DNA of 64,000 nt, taken from the IMG/VR virus record IMGVR_UViG_3300045988_110372, positions 17,924 to 81,923 of that record; one strand, 5' to 3'. How positions within the stretch are numbered: the first letter of the stretch is position 1; the number at the start of each line of letters is the position of its first letter. The notes under the pieces are model-generated. The model saw nothing but the letters and a program-made list of their open reading frames with translations. It did not search any database and had not been told where the DNA came from. The translations under genes were made by a program, and so were the position numbers. Positions 4,290 to 17,936 of this stretch are shown here, piece after piece. The DNA is from a virus.

Positions 4290-5210
4290 TTATGCGGATG
4301 CAAGTGAAACATTTGGTTGTGCTTCAAGTGCTGCTACTACATCAGGGTCAGCATTATACTTATTATAACAATAAGCCGAAAGTGTAATTGTAATTTTTTT
4401 TGTTGGTGCTGCGTTGTTAATGATGTAAAGTAGGCTGTCTTTGGCAAATAATGATGAGCTGGTTATATTTAACGATGTATTAAGTTTTGATATGTTTGCA
4501 AATTGCATAGACACACAATTAGTAAACATATAATCAATATCCACATCATTACTTGCATCAAACTGTAGTATATAAATTAAAGAAGAACAACCAGTAAACA
4601 TATAACTCATATCTATAGCACTGCTTGTATCAAACTGTGGCACAGAAGTTATAGAATAACAGTTAAAAAACATGTGATTTATAAACACAGCACTGCTTGT
4701 ATCAAATTTTGGAACATAAATTAAAGAAGAACAACCAGCAAACATATAATTCATATCTACAGCACTGCTTGTATCAATCATAGGAATGAATATTAGCGAA
4801 CTACAATCTTTAAACAATTTGCTTAAACTTGCCCTTTTGCTTGTATCAATCTTAGGAAGATAAACAATTCTATCTTTATATTCCTGAATATTATCAATAG
4901 TCAACACACCATACAGGTCAATATTATCCTGCGGTACTTTATGATAAACATCATCTTCTTCATTCCAATTAACACCGTGCGTCTGATAGTATTCTATATC
5001 TTCATCAGTCCAACCAATAGCTTTCAACCCCTCTACGTCTGCATGACCTGTAAAACCACTACTTCCACCACCGCTTTGAATACTTGCAATCTTATCGGGG
5101 TAGTTAGCCAACACATCTCCCACATCACTAACGCCTTTCGCTTCGATAGCAGCCTTAATCTTTGCTTTGCTATCTAATATTTTATTTAATTTCTCTGCCG
5201 TTGTTCCCAT
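4290..5210 (-). CDS. BspA-like leucine-rich-repeat (DUF285-type) fibre / receptor-binding protein
   Basis: Five or more tandem units of FDTSSAxDMxYMFxGCSSLIY(V/I)PxFDTS. The N-terminus LNKILDSKAKIKAAIEAKGV is typical of phage fibre proteins. Confidence 0.75.
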   Translation of the reverse strand: MGTTAEKLNKILDSKAKIKAAIEAKGVSDVGDVLANYPDKIASIQSGGGSSGFTGHADVEGLKAIGWTDEDIEYYQTHGVNWNEEDDVYHKVPQDNIDLYGVLTIDNIQEYKDRIVYLPKIDTSKRASLSKLFKDCSSLIFIPMIDTSSAVDMNYMFAGCSSLIYVPKFDTSSAVFINHMFFNCYSITSVPQFDTSSAIDMSYMFTGCSSLIYILQFDASNDVDIDYMFTNCVSMQFANISKLNTSLNITSSSLFAKDSLLYIINNAAPTKKITITLSAYCYNKYNADPDVVAALEAQPNVSLASA

Positions 5211-5211
5211 A

Positions 5212-5772
5212 TCAAATCACCTCCTTAAACCATTTATAACCATAAGCGGTTTTTAATTTACCGTTCAAAGCTGACGAGATATTGCAACCTTTTACGTTTA
5301 AACTTTTAGCCGCCTCACATACTCCATTATAATGAATAATATTTCCGTTTTTATCTATAGAATATATTCTTTTCCTTTGGGTAATACCTGCAATTATATG
5401 CCTTCCATTATAGGTGTTATTGTATTTTATATCACACCATTCAAGATTTCCTTTTCTATTATCACTTTTATTCTCGTTTTTATGATTAATAAACTTATAA
5501 TTTTCTTTATTATCAATAAATGCTTCTGCTACAAGTCTATGCACTTTACACATCTTTACATGACCTTTTTCGTTTCTAAACATAACGGTAGAATATCCAT
5601 CTTTATCTTTGTACAAACGAAGTTCTTTTTCTTTATATAAAACTGTTCTACCCATTGAATCTACCTGCTCATATCTATTCCTTTTTACTTTCCCATTATC
5701 ACTAATACTATATTTAGGGAAATTATCTATAACTTTCCACATATTTATTACTATATTACACACTTTCACCAT
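5212..5772 (-). CDS. Free-standing HNH homing endonuclease (NUMOD4 / HNH_3 / IENR1-like); likely start at Met11 (5742)
   Basis: Motifs WKVIDNFPKYSISDNGKV, VHRLVAEAF, INHKNENKSDNRKGNLEW, and C-terminal AYGYKW. Confidence 0.85.
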   Translation of the reverse strand: MVKVCNIVINMWKVIDNFPKYSISDNGKVKRNRYEQVDSMGRTVLYKEKELRLYKDKDGYSTVMFRNEKGHVKMCKVHRLVAEAFIDNKENYKFINHKNENKSDNRKGNLEWCDIKYNNTYNGRHIIAGITQRKRIYSIDKNGNIIHYNGVCEAAKSLNVKGCNISSALNGKLKTAYGYKWFKEVI

Positions 5773-9181: not shown

Positions 9182-11845
9182 CTAACTCCAAAAACTATCG
9201 TCAAATACGTTTGCCTTATCCAATCCTAAATCGTTATCCTCTTCCAACGCCACTTCCGAAGCTATAAGCTCCTGACCGTATTCGTATTTCAACAGAGGAA
9301 GCATCCTCATTGCAATAGGGTCTAGCAAGTCCATAGACCTGTTCTTTCCCAACATCTGATTCATTTCCTTCTTGTTGAAAAGCGTCTTTTTACCACTGGG
9401 CAAACCTTTCCATCTCACGACAGAACACTCTTCTATAAATTCCGTCTTTATCGTAATGGGATTGCTCATTCTCTTGTGAGGATAAATAGCTTCCGCAATA
9501 GAATCCTCAAATGAAAGCAAACCTCTCTTTATAACCTCTACCAATCGTCCGTAGCACTCGTCCTTCATGTTGTAGTGCATACGCCAATACAACCCATTTG
9601 GTCTGTTGTATGATTTAAAACCTATCGCACCGTTGATATAGTCGTTTATATAAGCAGCCCTAATAGCATCGTAGATTATATGATTGTCAGGTATTCCGTG
9701 TCTTTCTGCCATCTGCATCAGCATCTCTGCGTTAAGTCGTGGCGTACTTGTACATAATATCTTATAGTCTATGATATGCAGACCGTTCCAAACAAGTATT
9801 ACCGTGTTATCGTCACCAGTGTCAGCCAAGTCTGCCGTTATCCATTTGTCGTTGTTCTTTCGTGGGTCGTTGTTGAAAACGCTTTCGGCAGTAGCGTATG
9901 GGATAGGTGCTTCTGCATCGTTTTTTAAAGATACATTCCAATTACCTTCAATAAGCTGTTGTGCCTGCCTTCCACCAACTGCTGCAACACTACCAGCGTA
10001 GTCCATATTGTTACCGATAGAAGCCTTGTTCTCTGACATTCTACCTAAATAGAATGTAAAGCTTTTTATAAGGTTCTTATATGTAAACCCACCACCTAAA
10101 GATTTTATCTTTCTATCAATATCGTCCCTGCATTTTCTGTAAACTTCTTCTTTTGAATCACCCCAAACAACATCGTCTACATTCTCTCCTTGAAGATAGA
10201 AGTATCTCACGACACCGTTTCTATCTTCCATTATTTGCCCATCCAATCCAACATACCAATCAATGAATTTTCTAACCCAGCAGTCTTTTTCGGGGTTTGT
10301 AGTTCCTCTGAATTTGCCCGACCATTTGGCTTTACCACGGTTACGTGATAGTAGATATTTGAACGTAGAAAACTCATACGAAGTCAATTCGTCCATATAT
10401 ATTAAGTCGTACTGGCTACCTTTCCAAGTTTCAGTTACCTTTCGTATATTTTCATCGTTAATCTGCCTGAAATCAACAAACGCCCCTGACGGAAACCTTA
10501 CACGTGGAGGGTCTGTTGATTTCACTTCAATGTGATTACCATAGGCAGATTTAAAATCGTCTGTCAAAGAACCACCACCTTTCAATTCCGAGAATGTTCT
10601 TCGTGTGAAACATGCACGGAAATTTGGGTCTAATGATGGCTCGGCAACAGAAAGGATTGCAGCAAAAGACTTTCCGCAGTTCCTTGTTATAACGTATCCA
10701 TCTGTTAAATATATATGCTCGTTACCCGAAACATTTATACATCTAACATTTTTTTTGCCGACAAGTTTATAATCCATAATGCTTAGCATTGTGCTACATT
10801 TTCTGTCTTTTTCAGTTATAGCCTTATTTTTTTTTCTATCTAAGCAAAACAAATCTTTATCATTCTTAGTCCACACTAACAATCCGTAAGATTTAGCACA
10901 GTTTACCTCTTTCCCATTTTGTATTCTTTTTGTTTTATCTGTAATGTGTATTGAACATCTTCCACCTATACTCCATATTAATTCTTGAATATCATTTGCC
11001 AAATTTTCACTTGTTGTCCTGTAAGAAACTCTGCTTTTCCTATTTGTGCTAGATTGGGAGCAGCAGCCATCTGTATCGAACAGCCCTCTTATAAGCTCCA
11101 TTCTGTCTTCTATACTTGAATACTTATATATGTTAGGTATAAATTTATCATAAGACAATTTGCCCCACAATCCAAGTTCCTTCAAATACTCAACAACTTC
11201 TTTATTTCTGATGCAATAATGCAGGCTATTCTTATTTTTACTTTCTTTAACTATATCATATCCTAACCCTTTTATTCTTTCAATAGTTTGATAATCCTTA
11301 GAATGGCAAGCAAGGTCAGCTCTATGTAACTTATTAGATAAACAACCATCGCCTATTAGACAACCTAGTAAATACGGATGTATTTTAAGATTATCTTTTT
11401 TGTAAAAAGATACAGGCTGAGTAAGAGGTATTCTCAATCTATTCACATGTCTTTTATCCCTATTCTTAGATTTATCAATATATTTTATAATATCTTCGGA
11501 AGAAATATCAATAATATTTCCATGCCTTTCTTTTACCATCCAACGGTGAGAAAGAGCACTCTGAACCTTCCTTCCATCTTGTAACGTAAACTCAACAACA
11601 TCTTGTAGTCCTTTGTCTATTACAAAATTAACCACTTGATTTCCACCCATTGGATTATGTATTATATCTCCTACCTTTATATCTCCCATTTTTCTAAATC
11701 CGTCAGGAGTTGATATTAAGGCATCCATTGGTTGAGGGTTGAGTACCCCTCCGCCTATAACCACGTCTATATTGCTGCGGACGAAATTTTCTTGAAATCC
11801 TTCCTGCGGTCTGATAATTCTTATTTCACTTTCTTCATTTGCCAT
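9182..11845 (-). CDS. terL: Terminase large subunit, interrupted by an intein in the Walker A loop
   Basis: The exteins read ...VVIGGGVLN / CGKSFAAILS..., which regenerates GxxxxGKS. Walker B-like LIYMDE is present, and a C-terminal nuclease-type region follows. 887 aa including a 353-aa insert. Confidence 0.9.
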   Translation of the reverse strand: MANEESEIRIIRPQEGFQENFVRSNIDVVIGGGVLNPQPMDALISTPDGFRKMGDIKVGDIIHNPMGGNQVVNFVIDKGLQDVVEFTLQDGRKVQSALSHRWMVKERHGNIIDISSEDIIKYIDKSKNRDKRHVNRLRIPLTQPVSFYKKDNLKIHPYLLGCLIGDGCLSNKLHRADLACHSKDYQTIERIKGLGYDIVKESKNKNSLHYCIRNKEVVEYLKELGLWGKLSYDKFIPNIYKYSSIEDRMELIRGLFDTDGCCSQSSTNRKSRVSYRTTSENLANDIQELIWSIGGRCSIHITDKTKRIQNGKEVNCAKSYGLLVWTKNDKDLFCLDRKKNKAITEKDRKCSTMLSIMDYKLVGKKNVRCINVSGNEHIYLTDGYVITRNCGKSFAAILSVAEPSLDPNFRACFTRRTFSELKGGGSLTDDFKSAYGNHIEVKSTDPPRVRFPSGAFVDFRQINDENIRKVTETWKGSQYDLIYMDELTSYEFSTFKYLLSRNRGKAKWSGKFRGTTNPEKDCWVRKFIDWYVGLDGQIMEDRNGVVRYFYLQGENVDDVVWGDSKEEVYRKCRDDIDRKIKSLGGGFTYKNLIKSFTFYLGRMSENKASIGNNMDYAGSVAAVGGRQAQQLIEGNWNVSLKNDAEAPIPYATAESVFNNDPRKNNDKWITADLADTGDDNTVILVWNGLHIIDYKILCTSTPRLNAEMLMQMAERHGIPDNHIIYDAIRAAYINDYINGAIGFKSYNRPNGLYWRMHYNMKDECYGRLVEVIKRGLLSFEDSIAEAIYPHKRMSNPITIKTEFIEECSVVRWKGLPSGKKTLFNKKEMNQMLGKNRSMDLLDPIAMRMLPLLKYEYGQELIASEVALEEDNDLGLDKANVFDDSFWS
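10679..11737 (-). mobile_element. Intein with LAGLIDADG homing endonuclease domain (about Pro37-Asn389 of TerL)
   Basis: Hint block A-like PQPMDALISTPDG. Block B SHRW. LAGLIDADG motifs YLLGCLIGDGC and LIRGLFDTDGC. Block F VRCINVSGNEHIYLTDG. Block G YVITRN followed by the +1 Cys. Confidence 0.8.
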
Positions 11846-12840
11846 TAATCACTCTCCCACACTTCGTAGGCTAGCAATGATTTGTATGCTTTTTCAGAAA
11901 TCAAGCCTTTACTGAAATAATCTTCGGCAATGTCTTTAATATATGCTTCCTTTTCTTTCTTATAAGCTTGAAATGCTTCTTTTTCAGTATTGAACCGCCC
12001 CAAGTAAACTTGCTCTCCACCTTTTGATAATCTTGAACTAAAAGTTCCTTGTTTCGTTTTACTGACACCAATCATTGTGTCGCCACGATTTTTATCTGAT
12101 TTTGTAAATAACGTATTAATAAATCTAGGTACTATCAGACATGTGTCGGGGCTGTAAGCCTTGTTTCCGTGAACCATAATATCCTTGTCAAGTTCATATC
12201 CGTCTTTGTACCCATTTTCAGGATTTTCAAACCATTCCCTGAAATTTTTATAATGAAGCCATTCTTCGCAAACATAAGCATCTTTATATGTCAGATTCTC
12301 GGCTTTATAATCTTCGCAATAACATCTTCTAAGCATGTGCATCCACGCTGAATATGCTGGATAGTATTTACCGTCTTTATCTACACAGAATCTTTCATCA
12401 TCGTTTATCCCAGCACCGTAAACCAATTCCCCTCTTGAAGATTTAGATATAGCCTCTTTCGCATAACATTCGCAACCGCTTCCTCTTGATATATGACTAT
12501 TAGGAATTATCCAAAATTCCTTGCCACACCTTTTACATATTAAGCAAACTTTAGTATGTGAATCTACATACTCTACCTTTGAATAGTCATATCTACCTCC
12601 GTGTATTTTCTTTGACTTTTCTATAAAGTATTCCTTACCCATTACAACGCCGCTACACTTCGCACATTTGCACCCCTGAAGATGTATTCTTGGTAATACC
12701 CAAAATTCTCCGTGTTCGGGGCAGATAACACATACTTTTGTGTTGTTGTTTACATATTCAACCTTTGAGTAATCATACTCATCTCCGTGAACTTTTCTTG
12801 CTTCTGCAATAAACTGTTCCGTTGTTTTTCTTTTTCCCAT
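11845..12840 (-). CDS. Free-standing homing-endonuclease-like protein: two Zn-ribbon repeats + HNH_3-like core + AP2 DNA-binding domain
   Basis: Repeats VHGDEYDYSKVEY..CVICPEHGEFW..C.KC. AP2-like IGVSKTKQGTFSSRLSKGGEQVYLGRFNTEKEAFQAY. Confidence 0.75.
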   Translation of the reverse strand: MGKRKTTEQFIAEARKVHGDEYDYSKVEYVNNNTKVCVICPEHGEFWVLPRIHLQGCKCAKCSGVVMGKEYFIEKSKKIHGGRYDYSKVEYVDSHTKVCLICKRCGKEFWIIPNSHISRGSGCECYAKEAISKSSRGELVYGAGINDDERFCVDKDGKYYPAYSAWMHMLRRCYCEDYKAENLTYKDAYVCEEWLHYKNFREWFENPENGYKDGYELDKDIMVHGNKAYSPDTCLIVPRFINTLFTKSDKNRGDTMIGVSKTKQGTFSSRLSKGGEQVYLGRFNTEKEAFQAYKKEKEAYIKDIAEDYFSKGLISEKAYKSLLAYEVWESD

Positions 12841-12959
12841 AATTCTAAAATTTTAAAAAATTAACTTAATTCCACAATTCACAAAAATAAAGGGAAGGGC
12901 GAATCATGGAAAGTCCCTTTTCGAAAGGTTAATTACTCCTTTCTATCCCTTTACATACG

Positions 12960-12967
12960 CAAATATA
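12960..12967 (-). promoter_or_regulatory. TATATTTG -7 box (minus strand) for the HE/terminase/portal operon
   Basis: Plus strand reads caaatata. It lies about 120 nt upstream of the ATG at 12840. Confidence 0.45.
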
Positions 12968-13005
12968 CAAATAAATAATATAAATATAAATATGTATCTA
13001 AAAAG

Positions 13006-13024
13006 TTAGTTCATAGTGAACTAA
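13006..13024. promoter_or_regulatory. 19-bp palindrome between the divergent late promoters (candidate operator)
   Basis: ttagttca-tag-tgaactaa, with perfect 8-bp arms. Confidence 0.3.
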
Positions 13025-13063
13025 GTTGATAGCAATTCCTATTGTAATGATTACAAAAGTGTT

Positions 13064-13071
13064 TATATTTG
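13064..13071 (+). promoter_or_regulatory. TATATTTG -7 box for the scaffold-to-tape-measure operon
   Basis: Exact match 32 nt upstream of the ATG at 13103. Confidence 0.5.
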
Positions 13072-13102
13072 CGATAAGTTAAATTTTTATAATTGCAAGT
13101 TT

Positions 13103-17902: not shown

Positions 17903-17936
17903 AAAGGGTGGTGGTAGTTTTGCCACTGCCCTTTTT
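17903..17936 (+). terminator. Hairpin + T-run after the tail tube gene (partial terminator)
   Basis: aaaggg..gtgg pairs with ccac..cccttt. ttttt follows. Confidence 0.5.

Follow-up and report, generated by a model that had tools for sequence, protein, structure and literature searches.

A probable functional class 3 intein with a nested LAGLIDADG endonuclease in the Walker A loop of a phage's large terminase subunit

Class 3 inteins are defined by a non-nucleophilic first residue together with a Trp/Cys/Thr (WCT) triplet (Tori et al. 2010, PMC2807308), and their reported homes are DnaB, RecG, SNF2 and the large subunits of phage terminases, mostly the P-loops of these ATPases (PMC2807308). 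The element described here is an insert in the gene for a terminase large subunit (TerL), carried by a 64,000-nucleotide stretch of viral DNA (positions 17,924 to 81,923 of IMG/VR virus record IMGVR_UViG_3300045988_110372) that is called the window below and from whose first letter all coordinates are counted. Residues 37–389 of this TerL, seated inside the Walker A loop, are very likely a class 3 intein that is both functional and mobile and within which a LAGLIDADG homing endonuclease is nested. In actinobacteriophages, 287 class 3 inteins have been described, and those with a canonical LAGLIDADG domain are almost all found in TerL and Cas4 (bioRxiv 10.1101/2025.01.02.630785); TerL inteins have also been noted in crAss-like Bacteroidota phages (PMC7886860), and the TerL of Acinetobacter phage TaPaz is already annotated as "intein-containing". 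Because of the published terminase precedents, a class 3 intein in the Walker A loop of a phage TerL is to be expected. The initial annotation of this DNA, made from the letters alone, had expressed surprise at a class-3-type intein in a phage packaging ATPase, which was unjustified, since such inteins have been known in phage terminases from the time the class was defined. The window intein thus adds a further lineage to a kind that is well known, some of its residues being uncommon, and it leaves the current understanding of inteins unchanged.

Among the described systems, the prototype DnaB intein of mycobacteriophage Bethlehem (MP-Be DnaB; PMC2807308) shares with the window intein Pro1, His at block B position 10 (B:10), Trp at B:12, Cys at block F position 4 (F:4), Thr at block G position 5 (G:5) and the terminal Asn, as well as a LAGLIDADG endonuclease and a phage ATPase as host, but it has Thr at the +1 position, a penultimate His and a helicase host, where the window intein has Cys, Arg and a terminase. 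The Bvi IcmO intein of Burkholderia vietnamiensis (PMC5222942), which in 2016 was the only class 3 intein known with Cys at +1, likewise combines the WCT triplet with a natural Cys+1, with both branched intermediates being thioesters; experimentally, its Cys+1 is compatible with the F:4 Cys and does not bypass it. Bvi IcmO is, however, a 142-aa mini-intein of a plasmid IcmO protein, with exteins ...ARSLGF / CITFA... and no homing endonuclease. Among solved class 3 structures, the nearest in sequence is that of Msm DnaB-1 (DnaBi1, 6BS8), a DnaB intein from M. smegmatis (PMC6195587), also a P-loop insertion, whose catalytic residues align one to one with those of the window intein. Unlike the latter, it is a mini-intein at GK|S with Ala1, Ser+1 and a penultimate His, and the Cys48 of the Cys48–Cys118 pair that exerts redox control on it is without counterpart in the window intein. 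In mycobacteriophages, inteins reside chiefly in TerL (Kelley et al. 2016, PMC5050341); its two P-loop sites, TerL1-a and TerL1-b, are offset by one residue, sites c, d and e, which hold class 3 inteins, are outside the P-loop, and phage inteins vary in their penultimate residue (PMC5050341). Those hosts are Terminase_1 proteins of actinobacteriophages, and the insertion point found here is absent from that description.

The TerL open reading frame (ORF; 9182..11845, minus strand) encodes an 887-aa precursor of 101.6 kDa, composed of N-extein, intein and C-extein. The N-extein (residues 1–36; 11738..11845, minus strand) ends with the first half of the Walker A motif, G33-V-L-N36, and the C-extein (Cys390–Ser887 plus the stop codon; 9182..10678, minus strand) starts with the second half, C390-G-K-S393, in which Cys390 is the +1 residue. 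Between them lies the intein, Pro37–Asn389 (353 aa, 40.6 kDa; 10679..11737, minus strand), with the codon of P37 at 11735–11737 and that of N389 at 10679–10681. That the host protein is a terminase is indicated by a Pfam match to Terminase_6N from residue 387 onward (27.1 bits, cut-off 22), by the PHROG match to phrog_979, terminase large subunit (4e-46), and by the presence, after removal of the insert, of an ATPase domain with the Walker A motif GxxxxGK[ST].

These boundaries are fixed by homologues without the insert. In the homologue set, 120 cluster representatives obtained by a search with the predicted spliced protein, 67 clusters are free of insert and their sequence is continuous across the predicted junction, GGGVLN running directly into CGKSF. 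One intein-less protein, P0004 (531 aa, 81% identical), carries the exact spliced sequence (DVVIGGGVLNCGKSFAAIL; DVVIGGGVLNCGKSFAAILAVAEPSLDPNFRACF). In nucleotides, GTG TTA AAC|TGT GGA AAG AGC of the empty allele L004 stands opposite GTA CTC AAC|[CCT CAA ... AGG AAC]|TGC GGA AAG TCT of the window, so that the intein is a clean in-frame insert of 1059 bp between the bars. Its removal rebuilds G33-V-L-N-C-G-K-S393, identical with the P-loop of the intein-less homologues, and the phmmer alignments to the gp41-1 intein and to 6bs8 both set P37 as intein residue 1. The insert also differs in composition from the exteins, with a GC content of 0.321 versus 0.41 and a GC content at third codon positions of 0.246 versus 0.406. 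The extent that the initial annotation had assigned to the intein (10679–11737) and the restoration of GxxxxGKS that it had offered in support are therefore borne out, and the comparison that it had named as potentially damaging, namely intein-less homologues shifting the junction so that a Cys, Ser or Thr becomes residue 1, leaves the junction and the non-nucleophilic first residue where they were. For annotation, the locus is to be treated as one TerL gene with an intein, giving a mature protein of 534 aa with an intact P-loop. The insertion point, N|CGKS, between x3 and x4 of GxxxxGKS and called site a below, lies three residues (9 bp) upstream of the classic GK|S/T position, called site b; this displacement from the classic site and the atypical Cys at +1 are features that the initial annotation had not brought out.

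According to sequence motifs and a structural model, the insert is a Hint splicing domain into which a LAGLIDADG domain with two motifs is set. The N-terminal part of the Hint domain (approximately residues 37–145; 11411..11737, minus strand) contains block A (P37 QPMDALISTPDGF) and block B (S-H100-R-W102), and the C-terminal part (residues 346–389; 10679..10810, minus strand) contains block F (V-R-C369-I-N-V...H377) and block G (V-I-T387-R388-N389). The homing-endonuclease domain between them (approximately residues 146–345; 10811..11410, minus strand) has its two motifs, YLLGCLIGD166GC and LIRGLFDTD259GC, at 11342–11374 and 11063–11095 of the same strand, respectively. Each motif contains an acidic residue (LIGD166G and FDTD259G), and both of these catalytic Asp residues are kept in all full-length site-a relatives. 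Pfam recognizes LAGLIDADG_3 at residues 249–302 (1.5e-10, 41.6 bits, cut-off 22.5). In the alignment to Pfam models, a check that the initial annotation had proposed, the matches at E ≤ 0.1 were LAGLIDADG_3, Terminase_6N and LAGLIDADG_1, with no Hint or intein-splicing model among them; in NCBIfam, the matches, to intein-containing DnaB, RecA and GyrA, all stayed below threshold. The Hint assignment therefore rests on matches to PDB sequences and on a fold search. By phmmer, the gp41-1 intein was matched at 2.9e-7 and Msm DnaB (6bs8) at 1.2e-3. An AlphaFold2 model of residues 32–394, built from a 47-sequence alignment, has a mean predicted local distance difference test (pLDDT) score of 91.2 and a predicted TM-score (pTM) of 0.90, and the best PDB matches of this model in Foldseek are to PI-SceI (E 1.9e-17, TMq 0.67–0.69), followed by other intein-endonucleases; PI-PfuI, I-DmoI-type LAGLIDADG enzymes and the mini-inteins 6riz, 6bs8, 6rix and 6riy, among which 6bs8, 6rix and 6riy are class 3 structures, are also among the matches. 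For the two domains taken together, PI-SceI (Sce VMA1, 1EF0/1JVA) is accordingly the closest structure; it belongs to class 1, with Cys1 and a block F of the Asp type, comes from a eukaryotic host and is 14–16% identical.

The conservation of the splicing residues was assessed in 56 aligned inteins, comprising 11 from site a, 39 from site b and 6 from PhoH-like ATPases, and the correspondence to Msm DnaB-1, whose His65, Trp67, Cys118 and Asn139 are B:10, B:12, F:4 and G:7 (PMC5222942), was counted along the printed phmmer alignment to 6bs8. H100 corresponds to His65, W102 to Trp67, C369 to Cys118, T387 to Thr137 (G:5) and N389 to Asn139; W102 is kept in 55/56 of the inteins and each of the other four in 56/56. 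Since all five residues are kept in 55–56 of the 56 inteins, the WCT pattern as aligned is not a product of chance. The Cys369 codon (10739..10741, minus strand) would, from this alignment and conservation, encode the initiating nucleophile; Cys369 is also the sole Cys of the two Hint parts, and all ten further Cys residues of the intein lie in the nuclease domain. Residue 1 is the non-nucleophilic Pro37, and Pro occupies this position in 11/11 site-a inteins. A wider search of a library of 1.84 billion representatives (E ≤ 0.001) yielded 15,166 related clusters, and in the best 150 of these, in which residues were parsed, F:4 is Cys in 173/173 intein copies, G:5 is Thr throughout apart from a single doubtful parse, B:12 is Trp in 180/187 copies, and residue 1 is Ala in 119/187 and Pro in 28/187. 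Judged from its sequence, the window intein therefore possesses both defining traits of class 3, the non-nucleophilic residue 1 and the WCT triplet; it falls outside class 1, in which residue 1 is Cys, Ser or Thr, and outside class 2, which combines the lack of an N-terminal nucleophile with the lack of the WCT residues. The residues named in the initial annotation, including Trp B:12, Cys F:4, Thr G:5 and a penultimate Arg in place of His, were all recovered from the translation of the 887-aa ORF at the numbers given there (P37, H100, W102, C369, T387, R388, N389 and C390).

The intein is kept under purifying selection. A codon comparison of the window (9185..11845) with P0013 (L012 330-2999) gives ratios of nonsynonymous to synonymous substitution (dN/dS) of 0.07 for the N-terminal Hint part, 0.05 for the nuclease domain and 0.11 for the C-terminal Hint part. 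Three site-a relatives, P0003 (L007 3001-5025), P0007 and P0044, carry mini-inteins of 140 aa from which the nuclease is gone, and these retain all of the splicing residues (P1, H, W, C, T and N) and Cys+1. A second TerL or a second intein, sought in the 64-kb window as a possible substitute, was not found there, and at least 23 contigs, drawn from many samples, carry the identical TerL protein, from which it follows that the phage is viable with an intein-bearing TerL. The purifying selection, the retention of splicing residues in the mini-inteins, the lack of a second TerL and the recurrence on at least 23 contigs together point to a working splicing element in an essential gene. The precursor cannot form the P-loop, so that the packaging ATPase needs splicing. 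The intein is real and probably functional.

Several features weigh against a functional class 3 intein and have to be set against this evidence. The original 2010 description of class 3 has Ser or Thr at +1, whereas the residue here is Cys390, as in 11/11 site-a inteins; Cys+1 is rare, being found in 7/173 copies (~4%) in the best 150 of the 15,166 clusters. Ser/Thr+1 is nevertheless typical rather than obligatory for class 3, because the Cys+1 intein Bvi IcmO follows the class 3 route in splicing (PMC5222942). Arg388 replaces the penultimate His that usually aids the cyclization of Asn: at this position (G:6), the site-a clade has Arg in 9/11 and Cys in 2/11 members and never His, whereas His is present in 39/39 site-b and 6/6 PhoH inteins and in 167/173 copies in the best 150 clusters. 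Mutation of the penultimate His had little effect in MP-Be DnaB (PMC2807308), and AceL NrdHF (PMC7891396), a class 3 intein whose penultimate (G:6 / C1:6) His is missing, still splices; the latter differs in being naturally split, in having MCT in place of WCT and in lacking the F:13 His, which the window intein keeps (H377). The third adverse point is the lack of a Hint or intein-splicing model among the Pfam matches at E ≤ 0.1. As a separate observation, a helicase, P0146, is an additional Cys+1 case.

A Cys at +1 combined with the lack of an N-terminal nucleophile could also mean that splicing follows the class 2 (KlbA-like) route, in which Cys390, being the nucleophile that class 2 inteins use, would attack the Asn36–Pro37 bond directly and Cys369 would be structural or merely assisting. 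We regard this as decidedly improbable, as class 2 is defined by the absence of the WCT residues (PMC2807308), the full triplet is conserved in the lineage and its relatives, and in Bvi IcmO the Cys+1 could not replace Cys F:4 (PMC5222942). The loss of the penultimate His and the silence of the Pfam splicing models would likewise suit a decaying, splicing-dead remnant, of which Pro1, Arg388 and Cys+1 were degenerative marks and whose TerL was non-functional or bypassed. Such a remnant is, in our view, very improbable: the other catalytic residues are invariant in 11 lineage members that are 58–97% identical, dN/dS is 0.05–0.11, the mini-inteins keep their splicing residues, no second TerL stands in the window to bypass this one, the same gene recurs unchanged in at least 23 assemblies, and Arg or Cys at G:6 is a fixed trait of the lineage, not random decay. 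There is, finally, next to no chance that the element is a class 1 intein with misplaced boundaries, the true residue 1 being Ser45 or Thr46. Both residues do lie near the N-terminus of the insert, but the 67 intein-less homologues and the exact DNA junction fix N36|C390, the gp41-1 and Msm DnaB-1 alignments start the intein at P37, and shifted boundaries would leave surplus residues in the P-loop; the empty alleles thus refute this reading.

On the favored interpretation as a functional class 3 intein, splicing and the order of its intermediates can be predicted from the homologous inteins MP-Be DnaB, Msm DnaB-1 and Bvi IcmO. The thiol of Cys369 (F:4) would attack the Asn36–Pro37 peptide bond to form a branched thioester on Cys369, with His100 (B:10), Trp102 (B:12) and Thr387 (G:5) presumably positioning and activating this first attack. 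Trans-thioesterification would then hand the N-extein to Cys390 (+1), after which Asn389 would cyclize, with Arg388 taking the place of the usual penultimate His, and free the 353-aa, 40.6-kDa intein. An S-to-N acyl shift would finally produce the Asn36–Cys390 peptide bond, yielding a 61.0-kDa TerL of 534 aa with the P-loop GVLNCGKS. A further prediction is that the freed LAGLIDADG nuclease cuts intein-less TerL alleles (...TTA AAC|TGT GGA AAG...) in co-infecting phages and that repair of the cut allele then copies the intein in. Such homing, in which both the nuclease activity and its target are predicted, is supported indirectly by the dN/dS of 0.05 in the nuclease domain, by the patchy distribution of the intein and by an intein younger than its extein.

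The last of these points comes from the comparison with P0013, in which the intein has dN 0.06–0.08 and a proportion of synonymous differences (pS) of ~0.58, and the C-extein has dN 0.17 and pS 0.81. The lower divergence of the intein is as expected if it moved laterally after the phage lineages split, and suggests, as far as these two sequences go, a lateral transfer after the window phage and that of P0013 had diverged. The distribution among relatives is of the same kind. The lower GC content of the intein relative to the exteins likewise speaks for mobility. In the Walker A region (window 10676..11740), the 120 TerL clusters (P0001–P0120) comprise 67 that are empty, 43 with a site-b intein and 10 with a site-a intein, and these three states are interleaved on the extein tree; in a single extein lineage, P0059 is empty, P0089 and P0096 carry two different site-b inteins and P0097 carries a site-a intein. 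An allele with inteins at both sites was not encountered among the 120 clusters, which fits the notion that each insertion destroys the homing site of the other.

The site-b inteins of this TerL family, exemplified by Parabacteroides phage PF672P2 and Acinetobacter phage TaPaz, resemble the window intein in host protein, in location in the Walker A loop, in the Hint plus LAGLIDADG architecture and in the WCT triplet. They are 27–38% identical to it and differ in their insertion at GK|S/T, in a residue 1 that may be A, D, E, L, P, F or C, in the penultimate His (39/39) and in Ser or Thr at +1. Together, the site-a inteins make up a clade whose members are 58–97% identical to the window intein, and the sister group of this clade is one site-b subgroup, which is 35–38% identical. 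Because the site-a inteins constitute a clade of their own at this distance from the nearest site-b subgroup, the split between the two must be old, and a recent slide of a site-b intein to site a is rejected on the same grounds. Two DnaB-like helicases, P0295 (ARPK|AQP...THN|CGKT) and P0196 (ARSK|AQP...THN|CGKS), have class 3 inteins inserted at the corresponding point of Walker A, so that the x3|C-G-K-[S/T] site is reused across ATPase families. With empty, site-a and site-b alleles in close relatives, the TerL family constitutes a convenient natural system for studying homing, intein turnover and competition for the P-loop.

What the site-a lineage adds is a well-populated natural class 3 lineage with Cys+1 and without the penultimate His, represented by 10 clusters among the TerL homologues retrieved, 140-aa mini-inteins included; protein engineering could profit from mini-inteins that tolerate Cys at +1 together with Asn at −1. 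Non-His G:6 and Cys+1 occur together, in the best 150 of the 15,166 clusters, only in the site-a representative P0153 (TCN|CGKSF). The lineage unites Pro1, Arg or Cys at G:6, Cys+1 and the x3|x4 insertion. A more far-reaching proposal is that it is a mechanistically distinct class 3 sub-type, operating through an all-thiol relay from Cys F:4 to Cys+1 without a penultimate His, with adjacent Cys residues as a redox switch and in rivalry with a second class 3 lineage. Taken as a whole, this proposal is unlikely. If the redox switch were real, maturation of the packaging ATPase would be confined to a reducing cytoplasm, such as that of an anaerobic host; if the rivalry were real, overlapping homing sites 9 bp apart would be contested and each intein would immunize TerL against the other. 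Extra Cys residues are observed within the lineage, in block F at F:3 (VCCINV), next to the catalytic Cys F:4, in P0014 and P0097 and in block G at the penultimate G:6 (TCN|C) in P0044, P0102 and P0153; in those relatives they make up a cluster of Cys at the active site, which makes redox sensitivity conceivable.

The nearest cultured relatives of the TerL protein are Parabacteroides phages (29.8% identity over 94% of the query), among them PF672P2, and the Bacteroides LoVEphage (26.1%). The initial annotation's description of a Bacteroidota-type phage agrees with these relatives, and the host is inferred solely from them, at a distance of 26–30% identity. A megablast search of window positions 1–25000 against cultured phages gave no match, a prophage relative of the C-extein was not found in bacterial genome contigs, and the window yielded no tRNAs. 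Downstream of TerL lies the portal gene (SPP1_portal), and a few genes beyond it a 186-aa ORF (5212..5772, minus strand) with NUMOD4, HNH_3 and I-HmuI NUMOD-like domains, by which the product is identified as a free-standing HNH homing endonuclease; a gene for a DUF285 protein (4290..5210) adjoins it.

On the other side, a 331-aa ORF (11845..12840, minus strand), which shares 1 nt with the start of TerL, matches HNH endonuclease families in PHROG (phrog_953, 1.7e-69) and has repeated Cys-rich modules of the form YDYSKVEY..TKVC.IC..HGEF, and Pfam DUF723 is found on this gene as called on the contigs with the identical TerL and on the counterparts in relatives. An HNH-like gene directly upstream of TerL is kept in relatives, intein-less ones included; being conserved beside an intein-less TerL, it has the look of a packaging-module gene, either one for an HNH partner or one that fills the place of the small terminase, and not of a mobile homing gene. 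Between these minus-strand genes and the plus-strand genes that start from 13103, the GC content falls to 0.26 in 12800..13100, which is probably a divergent promoter region.

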